Source of the DNA: an uncultured Chthoniobacterales bacterium | GTDB lineage: Bacteria > Verrucomicrobiota > Verrucomicrobiia > Chthoniobacterales > UBA10450 | Direction of reading: 5' to 3' | Assembly (NCBI GenBank): GCA_964236815.1 | Contig: CAXSFN010000020.1 | Location: forward strand, 487-64,486 | Length of the DNA: 64,000 nucleotides | Shown here: positions 24,368 through 51,449 of the stretch, in pieces | How the letters are laid out: every line of letters starts with the position of its first letter | Position numbering within the stretch: the stretch's first letter is position 1 | Made by a program: the position numbers and the translations under genes | Notes under the pieces: model-generated | What the model was told of the DNA's origin: nothing | The model's database searches: none | Seen by the model: the letters and a program-made list of their open reading frames with translations, nothing else

Positions 24368-24532
24368 GTCATCCTGAGTCGCGAAGACGACGAAGGATCC
24401 CACAATAGGTCGTTGATTTCCTTGAACCAAACGCGGAATTGCCACGCACAGACTATCGAGCCACCGCTTGGCGTACAAGAATGTCAGTGTGCTTGCGGGA
24501 GATCCTTCGTCGTCTTCGCGACTCAGGATGAC
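24368..24532. repeat. hairpin MITE/REP-like element, GTCATCCTGAG family, copy C
   Basis: Perfect 32-bp inverted arms GTCATCCTGAGTCGCGAAGACGACGAAGGATC (24368-24399 and, inverted, 24501-24532) around a ~100-bp centre. The right arm contains the last codons and the TGA of uvrA. Confidence 0.9.
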
Positions 24533-27500
24533 AACACTTTCGAACGCGCAAAGCGTTTAGGTTTGAATCCGAGCGTTTCACGCAGGAATGGCGCCGTTCG
24601 GCTAATGCGATTCTTTGCGACTTCTTCCGGCGTTCCGAAGGCAACAATCTCCCCGCCATCAGCGCCCGCTTCGGGCCCGATATCAATGAGGTAATCAGCT
24701 TCCGCGATTACGCTGAGATTATGCTCGATCACGATGACGGTGTTGCCTTCATCGACCAGCCGATGCAGCACTTTGAGCAGCAACTCCACGTCGGCCATGT
24801 GCAATCCGATTGTTGGCTCTTCCAAGAGATAGAGCGTCGATTTTGGTTTGCGCATTTTGCGGATGCGCTCGTTTTGCGCACGACCGGTGCCCCGCGCGAG
24901 CTCGGTCACTAGCTTCAATCGTTGCGCTTCACCGCCGCTCAAGGTCGGGCTCGGCTGTCCGAGTTTCAGATAACCCAAACCGGTGTCGACCAGCAGCCCG
25001 AGTGGTCGCGCGATTTTGTGATTTCCCGCAAAAAATTCCGCGGCCTGCTCGATCGTCATCTCCATCACGTCACCAATGCTGCGGTCGTTGTAGAGGACTT
25101 CGAGCGTTTGCGGATTGTAGCGACGCCCGCCGCAATCTTCGCACGGCACGTAACTGCTGGGCAGAAAACTCATCTCGAGTTTGATCACGCCCTGGCCTTT
25201 GCAGGTCTCGCAGCGGCCGCCTTCGGTATTGAAAGAGAAGCGCGAATTTACGTAACCGCGCACGCGCGAGACCGGCAGTTGCGCGTAGAGATTACGAATC
25301 TCGTCGAAGACTTTGATGTAGGTCGCGGGGGTGGAGCGCGAAGTTTTGCCGATCGGCGATTGATCGACTTCGTAGACGGTTTCAAAGGCGTCCGCGCCTG
25401 AAATCTGGGGAGCGCACGCGACCCGCGTGCTGTTCGCGGCGACTCGCCGCGAACTCTTGGAACGTCCGTAAGAAGAGTTAGTCACGTCGCTCAGTGTGAT
25501 CGGCGAGTCGCCGCTCACAGCGCGCGAGTCGCGTGCGCTCCCCAGAGATTCCTTCACCGCGGGTAGCAAAACCGAGCGCATCAGCGTCGATTTGCCACTG
25601 CCGGAAATCCCGGTGATGACCGTGAGCCGATTCACCGGAAAACGCGCGTCGATGTTCTTCAAATTATTCGCGCGTGCGCCGGTGATTTCGACCCAGTGCT
25701 CGACCTCGCCTAACGAGCGACGGCTCTTCCGTGTCGGATGACATAGCGGCGAACGCAGACACCGGCCGGTTTCAGAATTTTTGTGCGCTTTGATCTCAGC
25801 GAGCGTTCCCTCCACTACCACTTCGCCGCCATGCAGGCCCGCGCCCGGACCTAGATCGATGATGTGATCCGCGCGGCGCATCGTTTCCTCATCGTGCTCG
25901 ACAATCACGAGCGAATTTCCTTTTTCGCGCAACGCGGTCAGCGTTTCGAGGAGACGCAAATTATCTCGCGGATGCAGACCGATGGTGGGCTCGTCCAGAA
26001 CATAGAGAACCCCGCGTAAATTCGAGCCGAGTTGCGCGGCGAGACGGATGCGTTGCGATTCTCCGCCACTTAGAGTTTTCGCGCTTCGGCCTAACGAGAG
26101 ATAGCCCAGCCCGACGTTTTCCATGAACTGGAGCCGTTGCTCGATCTCCGGCACCAGATCGGCCGCGATGGTTTGCTGGTTGCCGCGGAAGCGCAATTTC
26201 CGGATGAGGAGAAATGCTTCGATCGCGGCCAGTTTAGTGAAATCGTCGATCGTTTTTCCCTGCACCCGCACGTGCCGTGCGATCGCATTTAAACGCGAAC
26301 CGTGGCAGGCCGGACAATCACGCGCTTCTTCTTCGTCGATCCATTCTGATTCGCGTTCGGCCGCGAGCTCGTTTTCCAAAACCGATTCGCCGGTTTCTTC
26401 CTCGCCGGTTTGCAGCTTCTGATTAAAGATTTCGCCGAACCCGCCGCATTCCTGGCAAGCACCGTGCGGTGAATTGAAGGAGAACAAGCGCGGATCGAGT
26501 TCCTCGAAAGCGCGACCGCAACCCGGACAACTCATCTCCGTGCTCATGACCGTGACGCGATGGTTCGCGTCGAGCAGGTGTGCAGTTCCACGACCGATAT
26601 CAAGCGCGCGCTGGACGAGATTGCGCGCTTTGCGGATTCGTTTCGCGTCGATCATTCCGACCACGACATCGATGGTGTGTTCTTTAAAGCGCTCGAGTTT
26701 TCGAAAATCCTCGATCGCGATTAGCGCTCCATCGACCAGTAACGTTTCAAACCCTTGCCGCTTCGCCCACGCCGCAACATCGGTGTGAAATCCTTTGCGC
26801 GCTTTGACCAGCGGCGCGAGCACGGTCAGCCGTCCGCGGCGCGCGGCGGTTTCCACCTGTTTGACGATCGCGGCCAGGCTTTGTTTCTCCACCGGCAGAT
26901 CGCAATCCGGACAAAACTGCGTGCCGGTTTTTGCAAAGAGCAGCCGGAGAAAATGATAAACTTCCGTCACGGTCGCGACGGTCGATTTGCCGCCGCCGCG
27001 CGTGACGCGTTGTTCGATAGCGACGCTCGGCGGCACGCCTTCGACCAGATCGACATCCGGCTTTTCAAGCTGCTCGACGAATTGCCGCGCGTAGGGTGAC
27101 ATGCTATCGAGGAAACGGCGCTGTCCCTCGGAAAATAGAATATCGAACGCGACGGTCGATTTTCCGGAACCGCTCAGCCCGGTGATGATGACCATTTTGT
27201 CGCGCGGGATCGCGAGCGAGATGTTCTTCAGGTTATGCTCGCGCGCGCCGTGAATTTGGATGGCGTTGTTGACATGGCCGTTCGTGAATGTTCCGGGGAG
27301 CACACGCGACTCGCGTGTTCCGTTCGGCGACTCGCCGAACGGTTCTTCGGCGGCGCGGAGGACAGGTTCGTGATCGTATTCCGTATAGACGCTCTGCGAA
27401 GTTCGCAGCGAGTCGCCGTGGACAGCACGCGGGTCGCGTGCGCTCCCCAAAACTTCGCGGAGATATCTTCCCGTATGACTCGCGTCTATTCTGGCCACGC

Positions 27501-30500
27501 TTTCGGGTGTCCCAGCGGCAATCAACTCCCCGCCTTCATCACCCGCCTCTGGCCCAAGATCGATCACCCAATCGGCGCATTTGATCACTTCGAGATTGTG
27601 CTCAATCACCACGATGGTGTTCCCGCGCTCGACCAATCCTTGAAACACTTTCACGAGCAACGCGACATCGTCGAAATGCAAACCAGTGGTCGGTTCGTCG
27701 AAGATGAAAAGTTTGCCTAACGAGCGATCGCCGTTCTCGCCCGTGACGTGATCGCTTAAATGCGCGACGAGCTTGAGCCGCTGCGATTCGCCGCCGGAGA
27801 GCGTGTTCAGAGGCTGGCCTAACCGGATGTAACCAAGCCCGACTTCATCGAGCACATCGAGCGGGTCGCCTAGCTTTGGCGACTCGCCGATTTGCGCGAA
27901 GAACTGGATCGCTTCACTAACCGTGAGCTGCAGCACATCGTGGATCGATTTCCCGTAAAGGTGCACGCGGAGCACGTGCGCCTGAAAGCGTTTGCCTTCG
28001 CATTCCGCGCAACGGACGAAGAGATCACTCAAAAATTGCATCTCGATTTTCTCGAAACCAGTCCCGCAGCAGCGCTCGCAACGACCGCTGCCAGAGTTAA
28101 ACGAGAAGGCGCTCGCGGTCAGCCCCTGGGCCTGCGCTTCAGGTAAGGCGGCGAACAATTCGCGCACGCGGTCGTAGAGTCCGAGATACAAAATCGGCGT
28201 GGAGCGCGGGGTGCGCGCGAGCTGCGACTGATCGACCATCACAACATCGCCGACGCGATGCGCGCCGCTGACCGATTTGGAGGCACCAGGTTCCTGTTCG
28301 GTCGATTGACCTTTGGCGCGCGCAAGATTTCGGTAGAGGACTTCGTGGATGAGGGTGGATTTGCCGGAACCGGAAACGCCCGTCACACAGGTAAAAACGC
28401 CGAGCGGAATATCGACGTCGACATTCCTGAGGTTGTGCTCGCGTGCGCCGGTGATCTTGATCGCGCTGGTCGATTTGCGACGTGATTTTGGAATCGGGAT
28501 GCGTTTTTCGCCCAACAAGTAATCGCGCGTTAGCGAGCGAGCGAGCGAGTTCTGGAGAGCGCACGCGACTCGCGTGCCGTTCGCGGCGACTCGCCGCGAA
28601 CCCTGGGAACGCGCCATGGTCACAGACGAAATTACGCTTTCCGATGTGATCGGCGGGTCGCCGATCACAGCACGCGGGTCGCGCGCGCTCCCCAGCATCT
28701 CTTCTAGCGCGCCGTTGAAAATTAATTCGCCACCTTGCTCGCCGCGGCCGGGGCCGATATCGACGACGTTGTCGGCACTGCGGATGATCGCTTCCTCGTG
28801 CTCGACCACGAGAAGCGTATTCCCCTTGTCGCGCAGGCTGTGAATAATACGGATCAGGCGACCGACATCGCGCGGATGCAGACCGACGCTCGGTTCGTCC
28901 ATGACGAAGAGCGTGTTAACGAGCGAGGCGCCGAGGCAGGTGGTGAGATTTACCCGTTGTACTTCGCCACCGCTGAGCGTGCGCGTCGAGCGATCCAGGG
29001 TGAGATAACCAAGTCCGACATCGCACAAATACGCCATTCGGGTCACGACTTCGCGGCGCAGCATTTCCGCGGTGGAGTCGTGCGGCGGAAGCGCGACGTG
29101 CGTGAGCAAATCGCGCGCGCGACCAATCGGTACCGCAGCCAGCGCGGGTAAAGTCAAAGCTGTCGGCAGCCATTTGCCGTTCGTCTCCGATGGGGGCGGC
29201 GTGACCAGTCGATAGTTCAGTGCTGCGGGTTGGAAACGCCCGCCGTTACAGCTCGGGCAGGTGGTATAAGCGCGGTAGCGGCTGAGCAACACGCGCACGT
29301 GCATCTTGTAAGTTTTGCTCTCGAGATATTTGAAAAATCCGCGCACGCCGTACCAGCGGTCACTGTCTTCGTCGTCTTCGTATTCGCCGTTTTTCTTCTC
29401 GCCGTTAATGACGAAATCCTGGTCCGCTTTTGGTAGCTCTTCGAAAGGTGCGCGTACATCGATCTCTTCGCGGGCGCAGGCCCGCAGGAGATCCTTTTGC
29501 GATTCGCCCATTTCTTCGCCACGGAAGACGCGGACTGCGCCGTTGACGATGGAGACGGAACGGTCCGGGATCGCGCGATCCAAGTCGATCGCGATCGTCC
29601 GTCCGAAGCCGCGGCATTCCGGACAGGCGCCGAGCGGACTGTTGAAAGTGAACAAGCCCGGCGTGGGCGGACGAATATCGAGATCGCAATGCGCGCAATG
29701 CCAGCCGGTCGAGAAGGGGATTTCGGAAATCGGAGCGCGGGTTGCGGAGGTGTCTTTTAATTCCGCATTCCGTATTCCGCGTTCCGCAATCACATTGATC
29801 CGGTCTTTGCCGAAGCGGAGCGCGACTTCGAGCGCTTCGACAAGACGGGATCGATTCTCTTCCGCAATCGCGATTCGATCCTGGATGACCTGCACGCGCG
29901 CGCCGAGTCGGCCGATCTTTTTGTCGGTGTCGGCACGAATGACTTCGCCGTTTAGCCAGACGCGCAGGTATCCCTGTTGCTGGATGAATTTGAAGAACTC
30001 CTTCGCTTCCGTTTTCGGCGGAACGGAAACCCAGAAGGTGATGAGAACGGTCTGGGGAGCGCACGCGACTTGCGTGCCGTTCGTGGCGACCGGCCGCGAA
30101 CTTTGGGTGATCGACGGGGCGCCGATCACGGCACCCGGGTCGCGTGCACTCCCCGGAGCTTCTCCTTCGCTGCCGAATTCGCGAAAAATTTCGTTGGCGA
30201 TTGATTTCGCGGTTTCGGGACGAATCTCCCGTTCGCAACTCGGGCAGAACGCATGCGCGATCCTCGGCCAGAGCAATTTCAAATAATCGTTGATCTCCGT
30301 CATCGTGCCGACGGTGGAGCGGGACGATTTTACCGGGTTTGCCTGCTCGATCGCGATCGCGGGCGGGATGCCGCGGATTTCATCGACGCGCGGCTTGTCC
30401 ATGCGGTCGAGAAATTGCCGCATGTAGGGACTGAAGGTTTCGACGTAACGCCGCTGGCCTTCCGCATAAATCGTTTCGAAGGCGAGTGATGATTTTCCGC

Positions 30501-30663
30501 TCCCGCTCGGGCCGGTGATGACAGTTAGTTGACCCAGCGGCAGGTCGAGATCGATACCCTTAAGGTTGTTCTGACGGGCACCGCGGATCTCGATCGAATC
30601 GGAGCGCGGCGGCGGTTCTACCACCGCGCTGGCGTTTCCTTTTTTCCCTTTCGTTCGAGCCAC
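24523..30663 (-). CDS. uvrA: excinuclease ABC subunit A, tandem-fused double UvrA (2046 aa)
   Basis: One uninterrupted ORF starting at GTG 30663. Four Walker A boxes ([32 protein letters not shown]), four LSGGE signatures and paired Cys zinc modules in each half. Both halves start with I.I.GAR.(H/N)NLK and end with the SxTG/APFL-type UvrA tail. Confidence 0.9.
25405..25542. repeat. in-frame palindromic element in uvrA, copy 1 (codons 1708-1753)
   Basis: Inverted arms GGGGAGCGCACGCGACCCGCGTGCTGT...ACAGCGCGCGAGTCGCGTGCGCTCCCC. 138 nt, translated as [46 protein letters not shown]. Confidence 0.85.
27292..27447. repeat. in-frame palindromic element in uvrA, copy 2 (codons 1073-1124, inter-unit linker)
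   Basis: Arms GGGGAGCACACGCGACTCGCGTGTTCCGTTCGGCGACTCGCCG ... CGAGTCGCCGTGGACAGCACGCGGGTCGCGTGCGCTCCCC. 156 nt, translated as [52 protein letters not shown]. Confidence 0.85.
28552..28692. repeat. in-frame palindromic element in uvrA, copy 3 (codons 658-704)
   Basis: Arms GGAGAGCGCACGCGACTCGCGTGCCGTTCGCGGCGACTCGCCG ... CGGCGGGTCGCCGATCACAGCACGCGGGTCGCGCGCGCTCCCC. 141 nt, translated as [47 protein letters not shown]. Confidence 0.85.
30052..30153. repeat. in-frame palindromic element in uvrA, copy 4 (codons 171-204, short form)
   Basis: Arms GGGGAGCGCACGCGACTTGCGTGCCGT ... ACGGCACCCGGGTCGCGTGCACTCCCC with a shortened centre. 102 nt, translated as [34 protein letters not shown]. Confidence 0.8.
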
Positions 30664-39445: not shown

Positions 39446-40840
39446 TCAGGCGACGATGCGTTCGTTCCCTGCGTAGATGTTCATCGTTTCGCCGCGAATG
39501 AATCCAACCAACGTCTGATTGCTTTCACGCGCGAATTCGACCGCGAGCGAAGTCGGCGCGGAAATGGCAGCGACGATCGGAATACCAGCGGCGAGCGCCT
39601 TCTGCATCATCTCGAACGAGACGCGACCGCTTAAAAACAGGACGCGGTCGCTCAGCGGCAATTCTTTTCTGAGCAATGCCTGACCGATCAGTTTATCGAG
39701 CGCATTATGCCGTCCGACGTCTTCGCGGATCGTCTTTAGGTTGCCGTCGAGATCGAAAAGCGCGCAGGCATGCAGACCTCCAGTGCGATTGAAGGTCTCC
39801 TGGTTTTCACGCAGAGCATTCGGGAGGGTGAGCAACATCTGCGCGGAAACGCGGCATGCATTTTCAATCGCAGGAAAATTTTGCCGCACTGCCTCGATCG
39901 TCGCTTTGCTGCAAATGCCACAGCTCGATGAGCTGAATACATTTCGGGTTAGCTTCGAAGGATCGAACGATTTTGGATTGGTTAGGGCGACGTCCACGAG
40001 GTTGTCCGCGGTCGCGCTGCCGCACTGTGTGATATCGAAAATATCCGGGGCGCCCTGGACGATATTTTCGCTCAGGAGGAAACCGGCGGCGAGCTCGCGG
40101 TCGTGGCCCGGAGTTCGCATCACGACTGCGATACTGCGGCCTTCGATGCGGATCTCGAGCGGTTCTTCGACCGCGACCTGATCGGTGCGGGATTCGTTCC
40201 CCGCCTTTGCATCGTGACGAATTAAGTTTGTCGTTAGGATAGAAGGGAGCGCATCTCCGCCGGGCTCGGAGGGCCGGTTTGATCGCAGCGCATCGAGATC
40301 ATTCGGCGTGTTCATGTTAAAAAAGAGCGGCTCAATTTTTTGCTCGATCTCTTTTAGCCTAACAAGTCCTGCCGCGAGCGCGCGCCGGCAAAACTCCTGC
40401 ATGGAATAGTCACCCGACCGAAGAGAGTCTTCCGCCAGCGCGCGGACCAAGCGCGGATAGACGGCGGCGAGAGGTTCGAGCCGGTCCGGCATACCTGGAA
40501 CGACTCCGCAGCTCGCCGCTGAAAGTGAGAGCAACTCTTGCAGAAAACCGGACGTCATCTGCGGAAGATCGATCGCAAGCACGACAAGCAACGGCGTCGA
40601 GCAAATGCGGAGGCTGGCTACAATACCGCCGAGCGGGCCGGCGTGGTCGCATGCATCGGGAATGTGCGGATAGCGATCGCACGGGAGCAAGCCGCTAAGA
40701 AAAATTTCGGCCGGCTGAAGTTCCTCCAGGACGCGAAGCTGTCGCTGCCAAAGCGGAAGACCGTCAATTTCAATCAGCGCTTTGTCGCGTCCCATGCGGC
40801 TGGATTTTCCGCCTGCTAAAAGGACTGCGCTGAAGTTCAC
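39446..40840 (-). CDS. bifunctional molybdenum cofactor guanylyltransferase MobA / sulfurtransferase FdhD fusion
   Basis: 464 aa. N-terminal AVLLAGGKSSRMGRDKALIEIDG (MobA). The C-terminal ~270 aa carry SSSCGICS, GGLHACALFD and VGRHNALDKLIG (FdhD). Confidence 0.85.
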   Translation of the reverse strand: MNFSAVLLAGGKSSRMGRDKALIEIDGLPLWQRQLRVLEELQPAEIFLSGLLPCDRYPHIPDACDHAGPLGGIVASLRICSTPLLVVLAIDLPQMTSGFLQELLSLSAASCGVVPGMPDRLEPLAAVYPRLVRALAEDSLRSGDYSMQEFCRRALAAGLVRLKEIEQKIEPLFFNMNTPNDLDALRSNRPSEPGGDALPSILTTNLIRHDAKAGNESRTDQVAVEEPLEIRIEGRSIAVVMRTPGHDRELAAGFLLSENIVQGAPDIFDITQCGSATADNLVDVALTNPKSFDPSKLTRNVFSSSSCGICSKATIEAVRQNFPAIENACRVSAQMLLTLPNALRENQETFNRTGGLHACALFDLDGNLKTIREDVGRHNALDKLIGQALLRKELPLSDRVLFLSGRVSFEMMQKALAAGIPIVAAISAPTSLAVEFARESNQTLVGFIRGETMNIYAGNERIVA

Positions 40841-41359: not shown

Positions 41360-43117
41360 ATGGGAACAGTCTGGCGCGTCTTCAGTTATTTGCGGCGGTA
41401 TCCGATTCTGGCGCTCTCGACCCTGGCATGCGCGATCGTGGGCACGCTGATGGTGGTGGTCTTTCCGGCAGTAGCAAAGCTGGTCATCGATCAGGTGCTG
41501 GTGCAACACCGGCCGGAGCGTCTTACTCCGCTGCTGCTAATCGCGACGCTGGCGTTTTTCCTTCAGCACGGCCTGAATTCGTTGCGCATTATTCTGAACA
41601 ACACCTTCGAACAAAAGGTGGTTTTCGATCTGCGGAGCGATCTCTACCAGCACATCCAATTGCTGCCGCTGCGCTGGTTCGATAATCGCGCCACAGGGGA
41701 TCTAATGACGCGCATTCTCGAGGATGTGAACTCGGTCGAGCGCATGCTGATTGACGGGATCGAACAAGGTGTCGTCGCGCTCCTGCAAGTAATCATTGTC
41801 CTGAGTATGATGATCTATGTGAGCGGGACGCTGGCATTGGTCGGCCTGGCGCCGATGCCACTTCTGGCCGGCGGCGCGCTTTGGTACACGCTGACCGCAC
41901 ATCGGCGCTATCGACTGCAACGGCGCGCCTCCTCGGCGATGAATTCGTTGCTGCACGACAATCTCTCCGGCATTCGCCAGATCAAAAGTTTCGTGCGCGA
42001 AAAAGAGGAGCACAGCCGGTTCAACATGGTCAGCGCTCAGCTCCGCGTGGCCACGCTGGTGGTGATGAAAGTTTGGGCGATTTACAACCCGGCGATGCTA
42101 CTCATCAGCTCGCTCGGAGTGATGGCCGTTGTCTGGGTGGGTGCGCGCGAAGTGCTAAGCGGCGCGATGCAACTCGGGGACCTGGCCGCGTTCCTCGTCC
42201 TTGCCGGTTTTCTTTACGAGCCGATCGGGAAATTGCATCAGCTCAATCAATTGGTGCAGGCCGGACGCGCGGCGGGCGAGCGGGTTTTCGAGATCATCGA
42301 CGAGCCGATCGAGCCGGGCTGGGATTCCGGCGAGGCGAGCGCGACGGAAATCGCCGGTGACGTGCGTTTCAATGACGTCGGTTTCAGTTACACGGAAGGA
42401 AGTTTGCCGGCGCTGCAGCACATCAGCTTCCACGCACGTCCCGGTGAAACGATCGCGCTCGTCGGGACCACCGGCGCCGGTAAGTCCACCCTGGTGAATT
42501 TGCTGACGCGCTTTTACGAATACGACGCTGGCGAAATTCTGATCGACGACACGCCGATCCGTCAGTTCGGCACGCGCCGTTTGCGCGAAATGATCGCGGT
42601 CGTGACGCAGGAGAGTTTTCTCTTCAACGGAACGATTCGCGAAAACCTGCTCATGGGAAAACCGGAGGCGAGCGACGAAGAAGTCCTGCGCGCGGCGGAC
42701 GCTGCGAACGCACGGCCATTCATCGACCGGATGCCGGACGGATTGAACAGCGTGGTCGGTGAGCGCGGGGTCAAACTAAGCGTTGGCGAAAAACAGCGGC
42801 TCTCGATTGCGCGCGCGCTTTTGAAGGATCCGCCGATTCTGATTTTAGACGAAGCAACCGCGAGCGTGGATACAACGACGGAGCGCTTGATTCAGGAAGC
42901 GCTCGAGCATCTGATGGCGGACCGGACCTGCTTCGTCATCGCGCATCGGCTTTCGACGATCTTGCGGGCGGATCAGATTCTGGTCGTGGAGCGCGGCCGT
43001 ATCATTGAGCGCGGCACGCATGGCGAACTCGTGGAATTAGGCGGAAAATACGCGCGGCTCTGGGAGCAGAGTTTCCTGGAGACGGATGTGGAGAAGAAGC
43101 TGACCGCGAATGTGTGA
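41360..43117 (+). CDS. ABC transporter permease/ATP-binding protein (type I exporter, MsbA-like)
   Basis: Six-TM domain plus NBD (GTTGAGKST, LSVGEKQRLSIARAL, ILILDEATAS, AHRLST). ATG 41360 preferred; the track start is GTG 41342. Confidence 0.9.
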   Translation: MGTVWRVFSYLRRYPILALSTLACAIVGTLMVVVFPAVAKLVIDQVLVQHRPERLTPLLLIATLAFFLQHGLNSLRIILNNTFEQKVVFDLRSDLYQHIQLLPLRWFDNRATGDLMTRILEDVNSVERMLIDGIEQGVVALLQVIIVLSMMIYVSGTLALVGLAPMPLLAGGALWYTLTAHRRYRLQRRASSAMNSLLHDNLSGIRQIKSFVREKEEHSRFNMVSAQLRVATLVVMKVWAIYNPAMLLISSLGVMAVVWVGAREVLSGAMQLGDLAAFLVLAGFLYEPIGKLHQLNQLVQAGRAAGERVFEIIDEPIEPGWDSGEASATEIAGDVRFNDVGFSYTEGSLPALQHISFHARPGETIALVGTTGAGKSTLVNLLTRFYEYDAGEILIDDTPIRQFGTRRLREMIAVVTQESFLFNGTIRENLLMGKPEASDEEVLRAADAANARPFIDRMPDGLNSVVGERGVKLSVGEKQRLSIARALLKDPPILILDEATASVDTTTERLIQEALEHLMADRTCFVIAHRLSTILRADQILVVERGRIIERGTHGELVELGGKYARLWEQSFLETDVEKKLTANV

Positions 43118-43149
43118 ATCCGAAACGCGCGGAGCGTGTTTCAGTCAGA

Positions 43150-43713
43150 TTAATCGCTACTGCTACGAGAAGCGGCCGCGGCGTTTAGGAGCTCCTCGTG
43201 TTTTTGTTCGAGCTCGCGGTAGCGCGCTTCCGCTTCCACCAGCGCGCGGCGTTCCTCGCGCAAGGCTTGCTCGAGCTCGCGAATCCGGTCTTCCAATTTG
43301 ATGGAAATTCCGGCGGCGGCAGGGCCGGAAAAATTATCTGGCGTTTCCTCGATCGGTTCCTGCGCGGCCAGTAAATCGGCGATGCCGCGGATTTGCTGAC
43401 GGCTCCCATCGCAGGCGTTGATGACAAAAGTGTCGTCGTCGATTTCGCCGAGCCGAATGAATTCCCGAATGGCGCCGAGAGTGGTCGGGCCGTAGAGCCG
43501 CTCGCTCGTCACTTCCACGATCCAATCCATGGCCAGCTCCGGCAGCATGGGCGCCTTCATCCACGTGAGTTGATCGGTCGAAAGCGAATCGTGCGGCGCG
43601 ACCTGCGCGGTCGAGGCCCAGCGGCTCAGTTGCGCGAAACTGAGCGGACCGAAGGTGCTGCCATCTTCGTGTTTGCGCAGAAACCAACCGTGCGCGGCCG
43701 GCGCTTCCATCAC
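43150..43713 (-). CDS. GYF_2 (DUF4339) domain protein with C-terminal coiled coil
   Basis: 187 aa. WFLRKHEDGSTFGPLSFAQLSRWA...LTWMKAPMLPEL and a second GYF-like repeat (LYGPTTLGAIREFI). ATG overlaps the LysM gene stop. Confidence 0.6.
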   Translation of the reverse strand: MMEAPAAHGWFLRKHEDGSTFGPLSFAQLSRWASTAQVAPHDSLSTDQLTWMKAPMLPELAMDWIVEVTSERLYGPTTLGAIREFIRLGEIDDDTFVINACDGSRQQIRGIADLLAAQEPIEETPDNFSGPAAAGISIKLEDRIRELEQALREERRALVEAEARYRELEQKHEELLNAAAASRSSSD

Positions 43714-44168
43714 TCGTTAGGCGAAGCCGCGGGCGCGGCGCCAGGCGCGGGAATCATGATTGTCTGCCCGATCTGCAAGGCGCGGTCGTTCTCGATGTGA
43801 TTGAATTTTTGCAGCTCCTGCACGCCGACGCGGTTGGCTTTGGCGATGGAAGTGAGGGTCTCGCCTTTGGTCACGACATGCGCGTTGCCGGCGCCGGCCG
43901 GAGCGGATGATGGCGTGGCTGCAGTGCTCGCAGTGGAAGGAGTGCTTTCGCCGATCATCACGCCAGGGCGGATGTTAGAAATCTGCTGTTCGAGCTTGAG
44001 GAGTTGCTGCGAAAGCGCGTCGATCTTGGTGTTTTGCTGATCGATTTTTTTCGTGAGGGCTTCCAACTGGGCCGCGGTTTTATCGCTGCCGCCAGGCGCG
44101 AAGGTTTGCGCGGAGATTTGCAGGCAAAAAACGAAAAGAAGGCAGAACGGGAGAACGAAGCGCTTCAT
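43710..44168 (-). CDS. LysM peptidoglycan-binding domain protein, secreted
   Basis: ATG 44168 (MKRFVLPFCLLFVFCLQISAQ signal peptide). C-terminal LysM HVVTKGETLTSIAKANRVGVQELQKFNHIENDRALQIGQTIMIP. Confidence 0.75.
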   Translation of the reverse strand: MKRFVLPFCLLFVFCLQISAQTFAPGGSDKTAAQLEALTKKIDQQNTKIDALSQQLLKLEQQISNIRPGVMIGESTPSTASTAATPSSAPAGAGNAHVVTKGETLTSIAKANRVGVQELQKFNHIENDRALQIGQTIMIPAPGAAPAASPNE

Positions 44169-44268
44169 TTGCGGAGGATGGTGACATTTGACGCGGATTG
44201 AGGCAAGCGCGTGGAGCTGGGCCGCCGCCATGGCTTGCGTTTGCGGGAATCGTATTTAGTTTTTTCGC

Positions 44269-44442
44269 ATGCCCGAGCGCATCGAACGACCGACGGTTCC
44301 GTGGGCACCGAAGCAGGGCGGCGAAGGCGAGGGACCCAAGGCTCCGGATATCTCGCGGCCCAATACGGAGGAGCTGCTAAAGAAGATGCGCAAGGTCGAT
44401 CCCAATCAGTCCAAGCGCTATCGACAGCGCACGGGCCAGTGA
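44269..44442 (+). CDS. UBact / Pup-like prokaryotic ubiquitin-like modifier (57 aa)
   Basis: ORF below the track cut-off, hidden under the GTG-extended prcB ORF: MPERIERPTVPWAPKQGGEGEGPKAPDISRPNTEELLKKMRKVDPNQSKRYRQRTGQ. Gly/Pro-rich N-half, helical LLKKMRKVDP..KRYRQRTGQ C-half, terminal Gln. The stop overlaps the prcB ATG (TGATG). Sits where pup sits in actinobacterial pup-prcB-prcA operons. Confidence 0.75.
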   Translation: MPERIERPTVPWAPKQGGEGEGPKAPDISRPNTEELLKKMRKVDPNQSKRYRQRTGQ

Positions 44443-45236
44443 TGGACGGACCAGCTGCGGCGAGCAGCGATGACTTCGTCGGATTGCTGCGGCAAAAAGG
44501 GCTCATTGGTCATTCGGGTCCCGTCGGGCCGGTGACCGCGGATATTCCGCAGACCCAAGCGACCACCATTCTCGCCTTCAAGTTTCAGGGGGGCGTTCTC
44601 GTGGCCGGCGACCGGCGCGCAACCGCGGGAAATACGGTGGTCTTCGACCGCGCGGATAAAGTTCTCGAAATCGACCGGCATTCAATCATGGCGATCGCCG
44701 GTGTGCCGGCGACGGCATGGGAAATGGCGCGCGTGCTCGAACATTCGTTCCAATTTTTTCGGCGGACGCAATTGCAGGAAATGAGCGTGGACGGAAAGGT
44801 GCGCGCGCTTTCGAAATTGCTGCGGGACAACTTTGGTTTCGTCATGCAAGGGGTGGGGATTGTGGTGCCGATCTTCGCCACTTACGACAATGGCGCGGAG
44901 CCGGCGGCGCGTTTGTACTTTTACGATGCGATGGGCGCGAATTTTGAAGTTACCGATTACGCGGCGACCGGCTCCGGTTCACCCGCGGTCCGCGGCGTTC
45001 TTTATTACGAAAATAACTGGGGCAAGAAATCGCTCTTGCAGCTGGATGAGGATGAGGCGGTCACGGTGGCTCTGCGCGCTCTCGACACCGCGGCGGAATC
45101 CGACACCGCCACCGGCGGAGTGGATCGCAACGGGAAAATATTTCCCGTGATCAAGATTGTCGCGCGCGAGGGAATCAGGACGCTGCCGGACAAGCAGATC
45201 AGCGCGTTGTTTAAACGCGGAGTGGGCTTGCGATGA
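44442..45236 (+). CDS. prcB: 20S proteasome beta subunit
   Basis: Propeptide followed by TTILAFKFQGGVLVAGDRRATAGN (N-terminal nucleophile Thr), ...ATGSGS..., ...DTATGG. Collinear with actinobacterial PrcB. ATG 44442 preferred over the track GTG 44211. Confidence 0.9.
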   Translation: MDGPAAASSDDFVGLLRQKGLIGHSGPVGPVTADIPQTQATTILAFKFQGGVLVAGDRRATAGNTVVFDRADKVLEIDRHSIMAIAGVPATAWEMARVLEHSFQFFRRTQLQEMSVDGKVRALSKLLRDNFGFVMQGVGIVVPIFATYDNGAEPAARLYFYDAMGANFEVTDYAATGSGSPAVRGVLYYENNWGKKSLLQLDEDEAVTVALRALDTAAESDTATGGVDRNGKIFPVIKIVAREGIRTLPDKQISALFKRGVGLR

Positions 45237-46021
45237 TTGAAGAACCGTATCGATGGGTCGAAGCGGTCTCGAATCGCCGCGAGTATATCGAGACCCAACT
45301 CGCGGCCGGAAGTCCGATCGCGGCGGTCGGATGTCGTGAGGGAATTTTGTTCCTGACGCTCGGTCGAAATCGCCAGAAAATTTTCGAGATTTACGATCGA
45401 ATCGCGATGGGTGCGATCGGACATCCCGGCGATATCGAACGTTTGCGAATGGCGGCAATTGAGCTGGCGAGCGCAGAAGGATTCACGCGCTCGGCCGCGG
45501 ATGTATCGCTGCGCCGACTGGCCTACTACTCCCTGAGCCCGATGCTGAAGGCGGCCTTCGAGCAAATTTACGGCGCGCCCTATTTGGCCCGCATGTTGTT
45601 CGCGGAGCTGGGCGATAAACCGGAGAACGATCTTTTTCTGCGAGTCGAGTACGACGGCGCGATTGCAACCAATGGCGCCACACTGGCGGCGGAAGCGCGG
45701 CAGGATTTCGGCGCCCTGAGCGGAACGCGGATTTCGACGGAGCTGATGGAAACTTTTCTGAAACGAGAACACGATGGGACTGCGACCAAACAGCGCGCGC
45801 TGAAGACGGCGCTGCAAGCGTGGAGCGTCGGCAATCTTGCTCTCGGTGAAGGTGGCGCCCGAGAGCTGCCGGCGAAAGATGCGATTGCATCAAACGTGCA
45901 GGAGCAGTTGCGGAGTAACGCGGTGGAAGCAGCGATCCTGGAGCGCGACGGCAAAATGACGATCCGTTACCGCCCATTGACCGAGGACGAAATTCAAGCA
46001 GCGTGGCGGCCTAACGAGTGA
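45233..46021 (+). CDS. prcA: 20S proteasome alpha subunit
   Basis: 262 aa. ATGA overlap with prcB. IAAVGCREGILFLT...KIFEIYDRIAMGAIGHPGD resembles PrcA and lacks the catalytic Thr. Confidence 0.85.
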   Translation: MIEEPYRWVEAVSNRREYIETQLAAGSPIAAVGCREGILFLTLGRNRQKIFEIYDRIAMGAIGHPGDIERLRMAAIELASAEGFTRSAADVSLRRLAYYSLSPMLKAAFEQIYGAPYLARMLFAELGDKPENDLFLRVEYDGAIATNGATLAAEARQDFGALSGTRISTELMETFLKREHDGTATKQRALKTALQAWSVGNLALGEGGARELPAKDAIASNVQEQLRSNAVEAAILERDGKMTIRYRPLTEDEIQAAWRPNE

Positions 46022-46794
46022 TGAAACGCGCGCTGGCTTGGGCGGGCGTAGCGCTGATGGCGTTGTCGCTGCTCTGGCTTGAGCTGCTGCCGGCGCTTCC
46101 GCATTCGCGACTGACGCATCCTAATGAGAAACAAGGCGGTCCGGTTTCGCTCGTGATCATCGACGCGGGTCACGGTGGAAAAGATTCCGGTACGATGCGG
46201 AATGATATTCTCGAGAAAGATCTGGCACTTGATGTCGCTCGCCGTCTGGAGCGACTGACGCAGGCGAGGGGTTTCGCGACTTTGATGACGCGCCGCGGCG
46301 ACGAATCGATTTCACTGGCGAATCGGGCGGCAGCGGCAAATCGCGAGCGTGATTGCATCTTCGTCAGCATTCATTTCGACGAAGGAGCGCGCGCGGAAGC
46401 GACAGGCGTGCAGACGTTTTATGCGGTCCGGCAAATCCCAAGAACGATAGGTCTTCCGTCATGGCTTCCGTTTCTGCAGCCGGTCGTGGTCGCTCCGAAC
46501 AACCTCGAGAGCCAAAGCCTGGCGGGTTTTGTCCAAGAATCGCTCGTGGCCGGCACGCGTGCGTTCGACCGCGGCACGCATGCCGAACAATTTTATGTAG
46601 TCGCGAATGTCCGGCACCCGGCGGTACTGGTGGAAGGTGGTTTTCTCACCAACAATGACGACCTGACGAAGCTAGCGACGAACGAATATCGAGAGCAACT
46701 GGCGGGTGCAATCGCGGAAGGATTGGTGCGTTACCGCGCGGTCGCGAGCGAGCGATCACTCAACCTGGCCGTGGTGCACGACTCGTCTGAATAG
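46021..46794 (+). CDS. N-acetylmuramoyl-L-alanine amidase (Amidase_3)
   Basis: Signal/TM segment, then VIIDAGHGGKDSGT, FVSIHFD, ...PAVLVEGGFLTN. ATG 46021 shares one base with the prcA stop (GTG 46018 is the alternative), so it is probably co-transcribed. Confidence 0.85.
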   Translation: MKRALAWAGVALMALSLLWLELLPALPHSRLTHPNEKQGGPVSLVIIDAGHGGKDSGTMRNDILEKDLALDVARRLERLTQARGFATLMTRRGDESISLANRAAAANRERDCIFVSIHFDEGARAEATGVQTFYAVRQIPRTIGLPSWLPFLQPVVVAPNNLESQSLAGFVQESLVAGTRAFDRGTHAEQFYVVANVRHPAVLVEGGFLTNNDDLTKLATNEYREQLAGAIAEGLVRYRAVASERSLNLAVVHDSSE

Positions 46795-46825
46795 CGGATT
46801 ACGCGGGGCGTCGAATCAAACAGTC

Positions 46826-47542
46826 ATGAAAGCAGCAGCATTTTATTTCGCGAGCTTACTGCTCATCGGCGTGGCGCGGGGCCAGTCGGACTCGACTCTC
46901 GCTTCCGTGCAACAAACATTGAAAGACCAGGGTTTTTACTACGGTGAGGTGACGGGGAAGAAAGATGCGGACACGACCGCTGCAGTTCGCCGATATCAGA
47001 TTCGCAACGGGCTCCAGATTACAGGCGAACTTAATGCGGAGACGCAAAAATCTCTTGGGATCAAGGGCGCCACTTACGCGCCGCCGCGCGCGACGCCTCC
47101 ACCTTTGCCGCGTGCGATTGCCACCCCGGCGATGTCACCGAAGTTGCGCGTCGATCGAGAGCCGCTACAGCTCTCGCCGGGATATTCGCCGAGTGAAATG
47201 GTCCCGACGGCGAGCGGAATTTTCGATGGAACGCCCTACGAAAAGGCGCCGGCGGAATCGCAACGCCGGGTCGTCGCGAGTGCGCAAGGAGTGCTGGCGC
47301 GCCGCGGATATTATCACGATTTAATTGACGGAGATTTCGGACCCGGGACGCAATTCGCGTTGCGTGCTTTTCAATCTCGTTTTGGGATGCAGCCGGATGG
47401 AAAATTGAACACGCAAACGCTGGGCGCCATGGGTCTGCTTCCCGGCCAGCGGGTGCCGGGATTAACCGCGAGTCCGCAACGAAGCGGGCGGCGAGCAACG
47501 AGTGTGGCGCCGAACGGCGAGGCGATCTACGAGCCTCGTTAG
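46826..47542 (+). CDS. peptidoglycan-binding (PG_binding_1) repeat protein, secreted
   Basis: ATG 46826 (MKAAAFYFASLLLIGVARG signal peptide). Two LKDQGFYYGEVTGK...AVRRYQ / LARRGYYHDLIDGDFGPGTQFALRAFQ putative PG-binding repeats. Confidence 0.7.
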   Translation: MKAAAFYFASLLLIGVARGQSDSTLASVQQTLKDQGFYYGEVTGKKDADTTAAVRRYQIRNGLQITGELNAETQKSLGIKGATYAPPRATPPPLPRAIATPAMSPKLRVDREPLQLSPGYSPSEMVPTASGIFDGTPYEKAPAESQRRVVASAQGVLARRGYYHDLIDGDFGPGTQFALRAFQSRFGMQPDGKLNTQTLGAMGLLPGQRVPGLTASPQRSGRRATSVAPNGEAIYEPR

Positions 47543-47552
47543 GCCGAACGCT

Positions 47553-48362
47553 TCAGGGCTTATTTTCGAATTGGACTGATTGCAGCTCGGCGAAAACCGT
47601 TCCGATAAAGATCTGCGCTTCGATTCGGAGAACGAGATGGTCCGCGTCGTTCGAAACCCAAACGGTGGCGCGTTTGAATTTCTTATGCGGTGTTAGCTCA
47701 CGATCCTTCCCGATTTTGCTGAGCTGCACGTCAAGTTTGATCGTCTCGTAGTTGCCGGTGGGAACAACCAGAGGTTCGCGTCCCAAAACGGTGATGGTGC
47801 AGAGATATGGCGTCGTCCCGGGATAAACGACGACGTGCTCGACCGCGCCTTCCGCGAGCGTCCCGCTCCGCAAATAAAGCATGGCGGAGTTGAGGCTGAG
47901 CACATTCGTGAAATCGAAAGTGCGTGTCTTCGTCTTCACGTTCGCGCCGTGGCGTTCCTCGCGGCGGCTGGTGGCGCGTTCCGGCGTAAAGTCCACTTCG
48001 GTCTCAAGCGTTTTGTTTCGCGTCGTTTCCGTTTCACGGGACTGGATGGGACGAAAGGTGTGCGCATCCGAAAGGCTGATGTTGTGGACATCGAACTTCC
48101 ATAAAGTGCGGGCCCATCCGGTCGTGCCGCCGGTGGTTTCGAGACGGAAATGGCCGTCGGCAGTTTTGCTGAGGCGCAAGTCCGCCGTCGCGGCGGTGAG
48201 TCCGTTCCAACCGAAATTATATTGCACGTGCGCGGGTCTCAGCGCTGATGGCCCGGGTGCCAAAGGTTTGATGGCGCTTTCCCAATCCGCGGCGCCGATT
48301 GAGTTCGGAGCGAGAAGCGCGAGTGAGAACGCGAGGAAGAAAATCGATTTCAAACGGCCCAT
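47553..48362 (-). CDS. DUF3108 domain-containing protein, secreted
   Basis: Start moved to ATG 48362 (MGRLKSIFFLAFSLALLAP signal peptide), because the track ATG 48395 directly abuts the U-tract of the skp terminator. Beta-rich body resembling DUF3108. Confidence 0.65.
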   Translation of the reverse strand: MGRLKSIFFLAFSLALLAPNSIGAADWESAIKPLAPGPSALRPAHVQYNFGWNGLTAATADLRLSKTADGHFRLETTGGTTGWARTLWKFDVHNISLSDAHTFRPIQSRETETTRNKTLETEVDFTPERATSRREERHGANVKTKTRTFDFTNVLSLNSAMLYLRSGTLAEGAVEHVVVYPGTTPYLCTITVLGREPLVVPTGNYETIKLDVQLSKIGKDRELTPHKKFKRATVWVSNDADHLVLRIEAQIFIGTVFAELQSVQFENKP

Positions 48363-48395
48363 GGTCCCTGGCGCGGATTGACGGATTTTATTCAT

Positions 48396-48430
48396 AAAAA
48401 AAACACACGCGGGATTGCGCCCGCGTGTGT
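48396..48430 (-). terminator. rho-independent terminator after bamA-skp
   Basis: On the minus strand: ACACACGCGGG-CGCAAT-CCCGCGTGTGT (perfect 11-bp stem, 6-nt loop) followed by TTTTTTT, 27 nt downstream of the skp stop. Confidence 0.7.
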
Positions 48431-48456
48431 TCCTTTTCGAAATTGTAAGCTGAACC

Positions 48457-49095
48457 TTACGGCTTTGCTGGTTTTGCGGGAGTGGCGGCGGCCGGGGAAG
48501 AGGAAGTCGCAGAGTCGCTGGAAGTGCGGCTGGCTTTGTTCAGGACCGTCATAACGTCGGTAGTGAACTCGACGTTATCGCGCGAGAACAGAAGAAGCGG
48601 CACGCCGTTCAAGCTCATGCCCGATTTGTCGAAAACGAGATCAAGATTGTTGGCTTTAACTTTCTCCATGACCACGTCGGTGATTTCTTTGACGATGCCT
48701 TCGCGCATCCGCAGCGCTTGTTCCTGGAGCTGACGCTCACGCGTCTGGCGGAATTCATTGATCTCGCGCTCCATGTTTTTGATGTTGGCGATCTTTTCGT
48801 CGCGCTCTTTGGCTTTGGTGGATTTCGCATCCGCGCTCAGGGCCGGAGCTTCGAGCTGCTGATTGAGTTTGTTGATTTCGTCGAGCGCTTTTTTATAGGC
48901 GTCGGCGCGGTCATCGTATTCTTTCTTCGCCGCATTCTTGGCGTCATTGATTTTAGCCTCGGCGTCCTTCGTTTTGTTGAATTCCTTGAAGGCACGATTC
49001 ATATCGACGGTGCCGATTTTCATCGTGCCCTGCGCAAAGGTGGCAATCGGCAAGGCGAGCGAAGCGAGCAGGACGGCGGAGAGGATCTTTTTCAT
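48457..49095 (-). CDS. skp: OmpH/Skp family periplasmic chaperone
   Basis: ATG 49095 (MKKILSAVLLASLALPIATFAQG). Lys/Glu-rich coiled body typical of OmpH. Located directly after bamA. Confidence 0.8.
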   Translation of the reverse strand: MKKILSAVLLASLALPIATFAQGTMKIGTVDMNRAFKEFNKTKDAEAKINDAKNAAKKEYDDRADAYKKALDEINKLNQQLEAPALSADAKSTKAKERDEKIANIKNMEREINEFRQTRERQLQEQALRMREGIVKEITDVVMEKVKANNLDLVFDKSGMSLNGVPLLLFSRDNVEFTTDVMTVLNKASRTSSDSATSSSPAAATPAKPAKP

Positions 49096-49142
49096 AAAAT
49101 GGTAATTCGGAAAGGGTATAGACCCTGAGGGCATGGGTTCGT

Positions 49143-51449
49143 TCAAAATTGATAACCGACGTTGAAATTAAATTTCCCGCCGCGGCCATTGTTCCCGCCC
49201 GTCTGGACAGGGATGCCGTAATCAAGACGTAAAGGTCCCACGGGCAGGTCAAGACGCAAACCCAATCCCACGTCGGAGGCGAAGCGCCCATTGAAATCGA
49301 ATGCTCCGGTAGCAACGAAACCCGTGTCGTAAAAGACCGCGCCGCGCACTTTTTCGATGATCGGGAAAGTGAACTCAACTGTGCCGCGCGCCAGTGTGCC
49401 TCCACCGAGCGGCTCGCCGTTGTTATCCTTCGGACCGACGTCGCGGTAATTGAAGCCCCGCAAATTGTTTGTGCCCCCAAGAAAAAGCCGGTCGAAAATC
49501 GGCACACGGTCGTCGCTGCCCCATGCGTCCACTGCTGCCACCTCGCCGTTGAAGAGCAGGATCGTATCGAAAGGCAGGTGAAAATACTGAGACGCTTCCA
49601 GGTCCAGACCGTAAAGCTGAGTGTCTCCGCCGAGGAACCCGCCCGAGACCGAGGGCGTAAAAACAATCCGCTGTCCACTATGGGTGAGGAACGGATTATC
49701 GCGCGTATCAAAGACCAGGCTGGGGGTAATCTGGCTTTTGGTTCGCGTTCCTTGGTCGATCAGAATGGCATTCGAAACGCTGCTGGAAACGTTAAAGATA
49801 TCGATCTCCTCCAAGCGATACTCAACGCTGGCCGATAGAAATTTGGTGATGGGCTTGCGGGCCGTGAGCGAGATGCCGTAGTTCCGCTGATCGTAAACTG
49901 AACTGAGGAAATTTGCCTCGTTGTAAAAAAGCGTGCCGCCGACGGAAAGCGCGCGATCGAGGAAATACGGTTCGGTTAAGGCCAGGACAAAATCTTTACG
50001 CTGCGAGCCGCCCTGGAGACGAAGCCGGAATTTCTGGCCGCCGCCGGTGAAATTCGGCCAGTTCAACAAATCGAAATTTCCCTGGGTCAACTCCGCGAAG
50101 CCGACAAAGCTGTCGATCGTGCTGAATCCGACACCGAAGTTGAGCGAGCCGGTGCGTTTCTCCTCTACCTGCACGACTAAATCTTTCCGTGTTGGCACCG
50201 CGGTGTCGTCCGGATAAGTCTCGACGTGTGAGAAGTAGCCGAGGTTATCGAGCCGCTTTTTCGAAACGTCGACGCGTGTCGTGCTGTAAATATCTCCAGG
50301 CGCAATCAGCACCTCACGGCGGATGACTTTATCTTTCGTGCGGGTGTTGCCGATGATGTTGATGCGCTGCACGAAGGCGCGCTCGCCTTCTTGAATCGTG
50401 TATGTGACATCGATTTTGGCTGGGCCTGCCGGCACGCCTTGCGGTTGCACGACCAGATCGACGAAGCCGCCGCTGCCGTAGCCGTCGGCGATTTTCTTCG
50501 CGTCGTCTCGGATCGCTTTCGGCGAATAAATATCGCCTTCCTTCACTTTAAGAATGGCGCGCACTCGTTCCGGTGTGGTCACTTTCGTGCCCTTCACCGC
50601 AATCTTGCCGACATGATATTTGGCCCCCTGCACCACTGGGATCACCATCATCATGTGGCCGCCGGTTCGCTCCCGGCGGATGTCGTTGATCTCAATGTCG
50701 ATGTAGCCGTGGTTCTGATACCACTCGCGCACCGCATCGAGATCCTGCTGGAATTGCGATTCGTCGAGCCGGCCTGATTTATCGAGGAAGGAGATGATCG
50801 TTTTCGGCTTCGTTTTCATCTGCTTGCGCAGAACCCGATCGCTAAACGCGGTGTTCCCTTCGAATCGAATCCGGCTCACGGTGCCTTTTGCGCCTTCGTT
50901 CACCGTGAAAACGAGGCGGGAAGTGCCGCGGGCCTCATTTGCATCCACGCGATACTGGACGTCGATGTCGTTGTAGCCCTTGGCGCGGTAGGCATCGATG
51001 ATGTCTTGCTTGGCCGTGCCGATCGCGTCCTCATTCAAGGGCGCATTGACCTTGACCTTGATCATCTTGCGTAGCGCCTTGGCCGAAACCCGCGTGGCGC
51101 CATCGATTTCGATCTCATTCACGATCGCGCGCGTTTGCACGGCTACGATCACTTTCACTTCATCAGGGTTGCTGGCGGCTTCGCCGAAGATACGGACATT
51201 CTGCACCTGCCCGGTGGCATAAAGCCCGCGGATGTCCTGCTCCACGATCGTATCGGAATAAATCTGTCCGACCTTGGTGCGCATCTGGGCCAGAATTTTT
51301 TCGCGGCTGATTGTTTCCGGGCCGGTGTACTGGACCTCGATGGAATGAATCCGGATACCGGAGGTCTGGGCGCGCGCGGCAGGCAGGAAAGCCAGGGCTA
51401 AAAGAAAGAAGCAGAGGGTACTGCGGACAAAACCGGCGAAATTTTTCAT
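49143..51449 (-). CDS. bamA: outer membrane protein assembly factor BamA
   Basis: 768 aa. Signal peptide, five POTRA-like repeats, C-terminal 16-strand barrel ending ...FNFNVGYQF. Confidence 0.95.
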   Translation of the reverse strand: MKNFAGFVRSTLCFFLLALAFLPAARAQTSGIRIHSIEVQYTGPETISREKILAQMRTKVGQIYSDTIVEQDIRGLYATGQVQNVRIFGEAASNPDEVKVIVAVQTRAIVNEIEIDGATRVSAKALRKMIKVKVNAPLNEDAIGTAKQDIIDAYRAKGYNDIDVQYRVDANEARGTSRLVFTVNEGAKGTVSRIRFEGNTAFSDRVLRKQMKTKPKTIISFLDKSGRLDESQFQQDLDAVREWYQNHGYIDIEINDIRRERTGGHMMMVIPVVQGAKYHVGKIAVKGTKVTTPERVRAILKVKEGDIYSPKAIRDDAKKIADGYGSGGFVDLVVQPQGVPAGPAKIDVTYTIQEGERAFVQRINIIGNTRTKDKVIRREVLIAPGDIYSTTRVDVSKKRLDNLGYFSHVETYPDDTAVPTRKDLVVQVEEKRTGSLNFGVGFSTIDSFVGFAELTQGNFDLLNWPNFTGGGQKFRLRLQGGSQRKDFVLALTEPYFLDRALSVGGTLFYNEANFLSSVYDQRNYGISLTARKPITKFLSASVEYRLEEIDIFNVSSSVSNAILIDQGTRTKSQITPSLVFDTRDNPFLTHSGQRIVFTPSVSGGFLGGDTQLYGLDLEASQYFHLPFDTILLFNGEVAAVDAWGSDDRVPIFDRLFLGGTNNLRGFNYRDVGPKDNNGEPLGGGTLARGTVEFTFPIIEKVRGAVFYDTGFVATGAFDFNGRFASDVGLGLRLDLPVGPLRLDYGIPVQTGGNNGRGGKFNFNVGYQF

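Follow-up and report, generated by a model that had tools for sequence, protein, structure and literature searches.

A UBact gene directly upstream of the proteasome genes prcB and prcA in a Chthoniobacterales genome

The locus raises two questions: what is encoded by a small ORF of 57 codons directly in front of the proteasome genes prcB and prcA, and by which route its product would act. They were investigated in the window (the whole 64-kb stretch of DNA that was analysed), in related loci and in public databases. The ORF is the gene for UBact, a small Pup-like protein modifier of Gram-negative phyla, in the genome of a soil bacterium of the order Chthoniobacterales (Verrucomicrobiota). The UBact family has already been described and curated, and the protein encoded in the window is already present in public databases. 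UBact is the subject of Lehmann, Udasin, Livneh and Ciechanover (2017, BBRC 483:946), where Verrucomicrobia is reportedly among the phyla named.

Profile analysis in Pfam showed that the protein matched UBact (PF20513) with 84 bits against a gathering cut-off of 27.8 (E 6e-24), covering profile positions 2-43 of 43. In NCBIfam, it matched the equivalog ubiq_like_UBact (NF033388) with 87.2 bits against a cut-off of 35 (E 6e-25), covering positions 6-54 of 54. The original prediction had taken the ORF for a UBact tag and had proposed a profile search; both curated UBact profiles were strongly matched, far above their cut-offs. The protein shared four properties with the UBact family: the full-length match to PF20513 and NF033388, the size of ~55-60 aa, the gene position immediately 5' of prcB and prcA, and the motif LLK[KR]MRKVDP..[KR]YRQR[TS]G[EQ] at the extreme C-terminus.

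A search of 5.8 billion proteins revealed 663 clusters of UBact homologues. The top match was the identical sequence, located on a contig of 73,677 nt and present in each of NCBI, ENA and Logan, and several near homologues from Verrucomicrobiota or Chthoniobacterales MAGs carried the name 'MAG: ubiquitin-like protein UBact'. A Logan contig of 6.4 kb also had the ORF, called by a gene caller with a length of 57 aa. It had been described as unlisted; this was right for the ORF list used then, which had a cut-off of 60 aa, but not for NCBI, ENA and Logan, where the identical protein had already been called. When 1.84 billion representatives were searched exhaustively with HMMER, 144 clusters at 50% identity were obtained. 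When one genome per GTDB species was scanned, a UBact relative was found in at least 573 genomes, and the best 80 of these (at least 573) were all MAGs of Chthoniobacterales, Spartobacteria or 'Candidatus Udaeobacter'; the window was therefore assigned to Chthoniobacterales. Homologues annotated with a length of 80-100 aa had miscalled starts, and the MPER... core was present in all of them.

The UBact gene and the genes around it were organized as follows.

43150..43713, minus strand: GYF_2-domain protein, cytoplasmic, with a C-terminal coiled coil (PF14237, 33.2 bits; conserved neighbour)
43710..44231, minus strand: LysM protein with signal peptide, coiled coil and LysM domain (PF01476, 50.5 bits)
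44233..44268, plus strand: conserved upstream element (position-specific conservation in 86 related loci)
44269..44442, plus strand: UBact gene, 57 aa and a TGA stop
44442..45236, plus strand: prcB, proteasome beta subunit, 264 aa (PF00227, 103 bits, cut-off 22.4)
45233..46021, plus strand: prcA, divergent proteasome alpha subunit, 262 aa (sub-threshold profiles and invariant position after prcB)
46021..46794, plus strand: N-acetylmuramoyl-L-alanine amidase, Amidase_3 (PF01520, 160 bits; signal peptide, seen as a hydrophobic N-terminus; conserved position)
46826..47542, plus strand: PG_binding_1 protein (PF01471, 100 bits; signal peptide; order conserved)

The coordinates of the 57-codon ORF were reproduced exactly, and its translation, MPERIERPTVPWAPKQGGEGEGPKAPDISRPNTEELLKKMRKVDPNQSKRYRQRTGQ, was identical to the residues first quoted. 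An in-frame TAG was located upstream at 44257-44259; therefore, the ATG at 44269 was considered as the sole possible start. The last base of the UBact stop codon (TGA, 44440-44442) doubles as the A of the prcB start codon (ATG, 44442-44444), in agreement with the TGATG stop/start overlap proposed originally. The tag gene had also been placed directly upstream of the proteasome genes, and prcB indeed begins at the UBact stop, with prcA next. Masking by a GTG-extended prcB ORF was likewise found, as the GTG-started mechanical ORF 44211..45236 (341 aa) spans the whole UBact gene in another frame. A minus-strand ORF (44165..44506) also overlaps the UBact ORF completely. Of 84 related loci, only 12% had a GTG extension of the prcB frame that remained open over the entire UBact gene; the extension is thus an artefact of ORF listing, and in 88% of relatives, the prcB frame was closed by stops 5' of its ATG.

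Conservation was analysed in 86 related loci, with counts over 84-87 where stated. The UBact ORF was intact in 85 of the 86 loci, and in the remaining one it was cut by the contig end. Per-site diversity was 0.10, 0.07, and 0.46 at codon positions 1, 2, and 3, respectively. The mean pN/pS over all pairs was 0.11, with 0.06 in the C-half (residues 33-57) and 0.15 in the N-half (residues 1-32). Conservation of the ORF with mainly synonymous substitutions had been named beforehand as a check, with frameshifts or stops in relatives as the opposite outcome, and it was the former that was observed. The stop/start overlap between UBact and prcB (TGATG or TAATG) was kept in 79 of 84 loci. These results showed that the UBact ORF is a genuine gene on which purifying selection acts strongly. 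The reading that the ORF is not a gene, being a chance open frame or an N-terminal extension of prcB from another frame, has on its side the small size of 57 codons and the complete overlap by ORFs 44211..45236 and 44165..44506, but was refuted by the conservation analysis and has a practically negligible probability, given UBact profile E-values of ~1e-24, codon-position and pN/pS signatures specific to the UBact frame, stops upstream of the prcB ATG in 88% of relatives, and calls of the ORF by the gene callers of three public sources.

The N-terminal half contained the invariant residues P11, P14, G22, P23, P26, and P31. It had been described as disordered, and no secondary structure was predicted for residues 1-32; however, this half was itself conserved (pN/pS 0.15), and it is therefore constrained in this lineage rather than a freely drifting linker.

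The protein ends with KRYRQRTGQ at residue 57, and the predicted C-terminal motif, found as LLKKMRKVDP..KRYRQRTGQ, closes the protein with a terminal Gln. The family core at the C-terminus was GP..P....P[DN]t..lLkRMrkVDP.qa.rYRQR[TS]G[EQ]. Among 108 representatives of the 50%-identity clusters, the endings were TGQ (60), TGE (24), SGQ (11), and SGE (11). The terminal residue was Gln in 73 and Glu in 12 of 85 related loci; in the nearest 120 of the 663 clusters, it was Gln in 95 and Glu in 24. Among close relatives, RYRQRTG[QE] was invariant at the extreme C-terminus. The UBact tag was basic, with a pI of 10.1 and a net charge of +5 in the last 25 residues.

Comparison with Pup of Mycobacterium tuberculosis and other Actinobacteria (PF05639, TIGR03687) showed that both proteins are small and consist of an N-half without structure and a helical C-terminal half. 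Both end in G-[Q/E], of which both variants occur in nature, and in both systems the tag gene lies directly 5' of prcB-prcA. The AlphaFold2 model of UBact had low confidence (pLDDT 66, pTM 0.26) and contained coil at residues 1-32 and short helices at 33-41 and 47-55. A bihelical unit with an extended tail was predicted for Pup by Iyer et al. (2008; PMC2588565), and the modelled two helices of UBact resemble this predicted bihelical core. In the same study, the G[EQ] end of Pup was regarded as suited to conjugation via Glu or deamidated Gln (PMC2588565).

At the sequence level, UBact had no detectable similarity to Pup. Only PF20513 was reported in Pfam, even at E<=10; TIGR03687 (Pup) gave no match in NCBIfam at E<=0.01; and a PDB profile search returned no Pup chain, the only matches being chance plasmepsin matches with E ~0.4. 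Pup is acidic. The charge of the two tags was thus opposite: the pI of UBact was 10.1, while that of M. tuberculosis Pup, as calculated from its sequence, was ~4 with a net charge of -6. The ends also differed (RTGQ in UBact, GGQ in Pup), and no dop, pafA or mpa gene was located near UBact in the window. The earlier term 'Pup homologue' describes a relationship that was undetectable by sequence (Pfam at E<=10, PDB), and a basic tag stands against an acidic one.

The proteasome genes were analysed in the same way. On TIGR03690, prcB had 174.6 bits, slightly under the equivalog cut-off of 191.9. PrcB consisted of a propeptide of ~40 aa followed by TTILAFKF..., and the mature TTILAFKFQGGVLVAGDRRATAGNTVVFDRADK carries Thr1, Asp17, and Lys33; judged from these residues, the 20S proteasome is plausible as a catalytically competent enzyme. 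For prcA, the scores were 75.6 bits on TIGR03691 (cut-off 139) and 21.5 bits on PF00227 (cut-off 22.4), and it was assigned because of these sub-threshold matches together with its invariant position behind prcB. In related loci, prcA was always 3' of prcB, and the order UBact-prcB-prcA was kept in ~85 loci. The prcB/prcA junction was a 4-nt ATGA overlap, and the prcA/amidase junction was TGATG at 46019-46023. These overlaps showed translational coupling of UBact with prcB and prcA, which in the window extends to the peptidoglycan amidase gene. In one related GTDB locus (L074), no long prcB ORF was present because prcB was broken at ~10500-10560 by a run of N, which is a masking or scaffold gap and not a biological disruption.

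Upstream of UBact, the conserved element at 44233..44268 contained TTGCGT at ~-35 from the ATG, TAGTTT at ~-12, and a T-run from -7 to -4. In relatives, the corresponding features were TTGC(C/G)tTT ~35 nt from the ATG and TAnnnT 11-13 nt from the ATG; TTGC was located 34-35 nt from the ATG in 49 of the 86 loci, and the T-run had 1.8-1.9 bits. No Shine-Dalgarno sequence was found upstream of the UBact ATG, a generic sigma-70 scan gave no promoter at its thresholds, and Rfam analysis of 43000-47600 gave nothing at E<=0.1. Judged by sequence, the element is a putative promoter, and because it is so near the ATG, the transcript would be leaderless or nearly so.

The genes on both sides of the module belong to an envelope-gene neighbourhood. 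The LysM gene is divergent from UBact, with 37 nt between the two ATGs, and was present in 84 of 87 sources. The GYF_2 gene overlaps the stop of the LysM gene, and its product had no hydrophobic segment or signal peptide. The LysM, amidase and PG-binding proteins had signal-peptide-like N-termini. In related loci, a near-invariant order was observed: ABC exporter (plus), GYF_2 (minus) and LysM (minus); then UBact, PrcB, PrcA, Amidase_3 and PG_binding_1 (plus); then DUF3108, OmpH/Skp and BamA (minus). The envelope block spans 43150-51449 of the window and was seen in L001, L004, L005, and most of L007-L086. The amidase gene is probably co-transcribed with prcA, because its ATG overlaps the prcA stop (TGATG); it is regarded as a neighbour and not as a component of the tag system. 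A cytoplasmic proteasome is thereby apparently co-operonic with a secreted peptidoglycan amidase.

In eukaryotes, proline-rich peptides are known ligands of GYF domains. The UBact N-half is conserved and rich in proline (P.VPWxPK...GPKxPDxSRP), and the UBact gene lies beside the GYF_2 gene. By analogy, the GYF_2 protein might interact with the UBact N-half, which is pure speculation.

Two further ORFs of the window were recorded. The 2046-aa ORF at 24523-30663 (minus strand) had UvrA interaction and DNA-binding domains and at least four ABC/P-loop regions; with ~2x the normal UvrA length, its product seems to be a UvrA-like protein that arose by tandem duplication or fusion. At 39446-40840 (minus strand), a MobA-like NTP transferase and an FdhD sulfurtransferase were found in one 464-aa ORF. 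In L001, MobA-like and FdhD were two adjacent genes of 192 aa and 279 aa; the 464-aa ORF is possibly a gene fusion or an artefact of a mechanical ORF start.

The locus of the tag-proteasome module was then compared with known UBact loci. The published UBact locus of Lehmann et al. from 2017 is said to have the order Mpa-Dop-UBact-PrcB-PrcA-PafA. Compared with this order, the window keeps only UBact-PrcB-PrcA, followed by the peptidoglycan amidase and with envelope genes around. Pfam analysis of the window ORFs of at least 390 aa showed no Pup ligase and no proteasomal ATPase. Tblastn with M. tuberculosis-type PafA and Mpa probes revealed no ligase in the window and 86 related loci (1.4 Mb), where the related loci extend 10 kb around UBact. 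The two probes were validated in Pfam (Pup_ligase with 570 bits over the full length; AAA and proteasomal OB domains). The sole match of the ATPase probe was the FtsH gene of L004. According to Iyer et al. (2008), the tag gene is 'invariably' adjacent to the PafA gene (PMC2588565); this adjacency does not hold in the window.

For the sister comparison, 80 loci were taken from metagenomes; they belong to the UBact group closest to that of the window (MPDQAQK...), whose UBact was ~64% identical overall to that of the window, with 22/25 identical residues in the C-terminal region. PrcB and PrcA shared 46-51% and 38-44% identity, respectively. Six sister loci (L090, L136, L146, L151, L160, and L163) had the full order of Mpa, Dop-like, UBact, PrcB, PrcA, and PafA-like; the window is without the Mpa-like, Dop-like and PafA-like genes of these loci, while the envelope-gene neighbours of the window were absent from the sister loci. 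The ATPase of the sister group was Mpa-like (TIGR03689, 416 bits). Of the two paralogues, the upstream one was Dop-like, with 444 bits on TIGR03688 against 344 for PafA, and the downstream PafA-like one was ambiguous, with 282 bits on the Dop model and 276 on the PafA model. In the sister loci, the M. tuberculosis-type PafA and Mpa probes gave matches with E values from 1e-50 to 1e-96 and revealed all three genes. Probes made from the sister group gave nothing by tblastn in the window and 86 related loci.

Partial sister loci with UBact-PrcB-PrcA-PafA-like were also found (L097, L099, L101, L105, L112, L115, and L121), and neither Mpa nor Dop lay in the 10 kb upstream of them. The upstream genes of the partial loci were unrelated, e.g., glycine dehydrogenase in L099. 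Since full, partial and minimal loci were all seen, Verrucomicrobiae show a series from the full cluster through the partial cluster to the minimal UBact-PrcB-PrcA module, in which the operon is fragmenting stepwise. Another locus variant may be represented by L094, L096, and L104: a ~300 nt gap separated UBact and prcB in L094 and L096, all three had no prcA or PafA-like match of at least 80 residues downstream of prcB, and a Dop-like gene was located upstream in L094 and L104.

The ligase was also searched for in the set of 5.8 billion proteins. A PafA-like profile of minor sister-group proteins found sister-group ligases only. A masked ligase query, with 167 invariant positions and X elsewhere, gave 3161 clusters, and the top 120, which were tied, all belonged to sister groups. 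A search of the available literature found no experimental study of UBact conjugation; beyond reference-list citations, it returned a passing mention in a 2024 review and unrelated tokens. The literature on Chthoniobacter or Udaeobacter together with the proteasome gave nothing specific.

The best explanation, which we hold to be likely, is that the UBact gene would serve a canonical Pup-like conjugation and proteasome route whose enzymes are encoded elsewhere in the genome. The mechanism was inferred from the Pup system (PMC2588565, PMC7947786; established knowledge) and from the sister loci. On this analogy, UBact would need conversion of its terminal Gln to Glu, carried out by a Dop-type deamidase, as first suggested, or by the ligase paralogue. 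A PafA-type ligase (glutamine-synthetase fold) would then join the C-terminal side-chain carboxylate to target lysines, and an Mpa-type AAA ATPase would hand the tagged proteins to PrcAB, the 20S proteasome. In this lineage, all three enzymes would be encoded outside the locus. The same chemistry can be argued to be retained, because RYRQRTG[QE] is near-invariant and 22/25 C-terminal residues are identical with sister groups that encode the enzymes. For conjugation speaks the fact that sister Verrucomicrobiae encode the machinery for the same type of tag beside UBact. Against it, the window (64 kb) and the 10 kb around UBact in the 86 loci showed no gene of the Pup-ligase family and no Mpa gene, the 'invariable' PafA adjacency of Iyer et al. 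was broken, similarity to Pup was undetectable, and the charge was opposite to that of Pup.

Alternatively, UBact might act without covalent conjugation, as a non-covalent cofactor, a gate or assembly factor, or a degron-like adaptor of PrcAB, with the ligase, deamidase and unfoldase lost. Such a role would fit a locus that retains only UBact-prcB-prcA of the canonical cluster in the window and 86 related loci, the translational coupling of the three genes, which suggests matched production, and an N-half that is also conserved, with several invariant Pro and Gly. However, it is considered unlikely: RYRQRTG[QE] was invariant, the C-half had a pN/pS of 0.06, and the motif was the same as in sister groups that encode Dop-like and PafA-like proteins. 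Without conjugation, it is difficult to see why a terminal G[EQ] should be conserved. In addition, the absence of the enzymes is limited to +/-10 kb around UBact, and the partial sister clusters indicate dispersal, not loss.

Within conjugation itself, a single bifunctional enzyme of the Pup-ligase family might both deamidate and ligate UBact-Gln, so that a separate Dop-type deamidase would be unneeded. In Actinobacteria, the deamidation of Pup is done by Dop, and the full sister clusters have two paralogues, of which the upstream one is clearly Dop-like (TIGR03688 444 against PafA 344). The single enzyme is therefore quite unlikely here, although a single homologue of both Dop and PafA was described in some Planctomycetes by Hecht et al. 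(2020; PMC7947786), possible deamidation by the ligase was suggested by Iyer et al. (2008; PMC2588565), and the downstream paralogue of the sister group fitted both models equally (282 bits for Dop, 276 for PafA), so that it is not clearly either. The preferred reading thus remains a Pup-like conjugation and proteasome route with enzymes encoded elsewhere.

A further proposal concerns the position of the module in Chthoniobacterales/Udaeobacter, where UBact and the 20S proteasome would be detached from the ligase, deamidase and unfoldase genes and fixed in the envelope block. There, the module would share an operon with the secreted amidase and the PG-binding protein, diverge from the LysM/GYF_2 pair and lie beside Skp and BamA. 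This arrangement could reflect a lineage-specific functional link between tagged proteolysis and envelope remodelling, or a ligase-independent use of UBact, with the GYF_2 protein as one speculative route; a low probability was given to this proposal.

In Gram-negative bacteria, UBact has been defined by bioinformatics as the counterpart of Pup and ubiquitin. The window provides no new family; it places the UBact gene in Chthoniobacterales, to which 'Candidatus Udaeobacter' belongs, and the current curated models already catch the small UBact ORF. Modest novelty is confined to the minimal locus, which is specific to this lineage and set among envelope genes. The locus is useful for the study of how the Pup/UBact-proteasome operon fragments, and, being reduced, highly conserved and without nearby conjugation enzymes, it is useful for choosing test systems for UBact conjugation.
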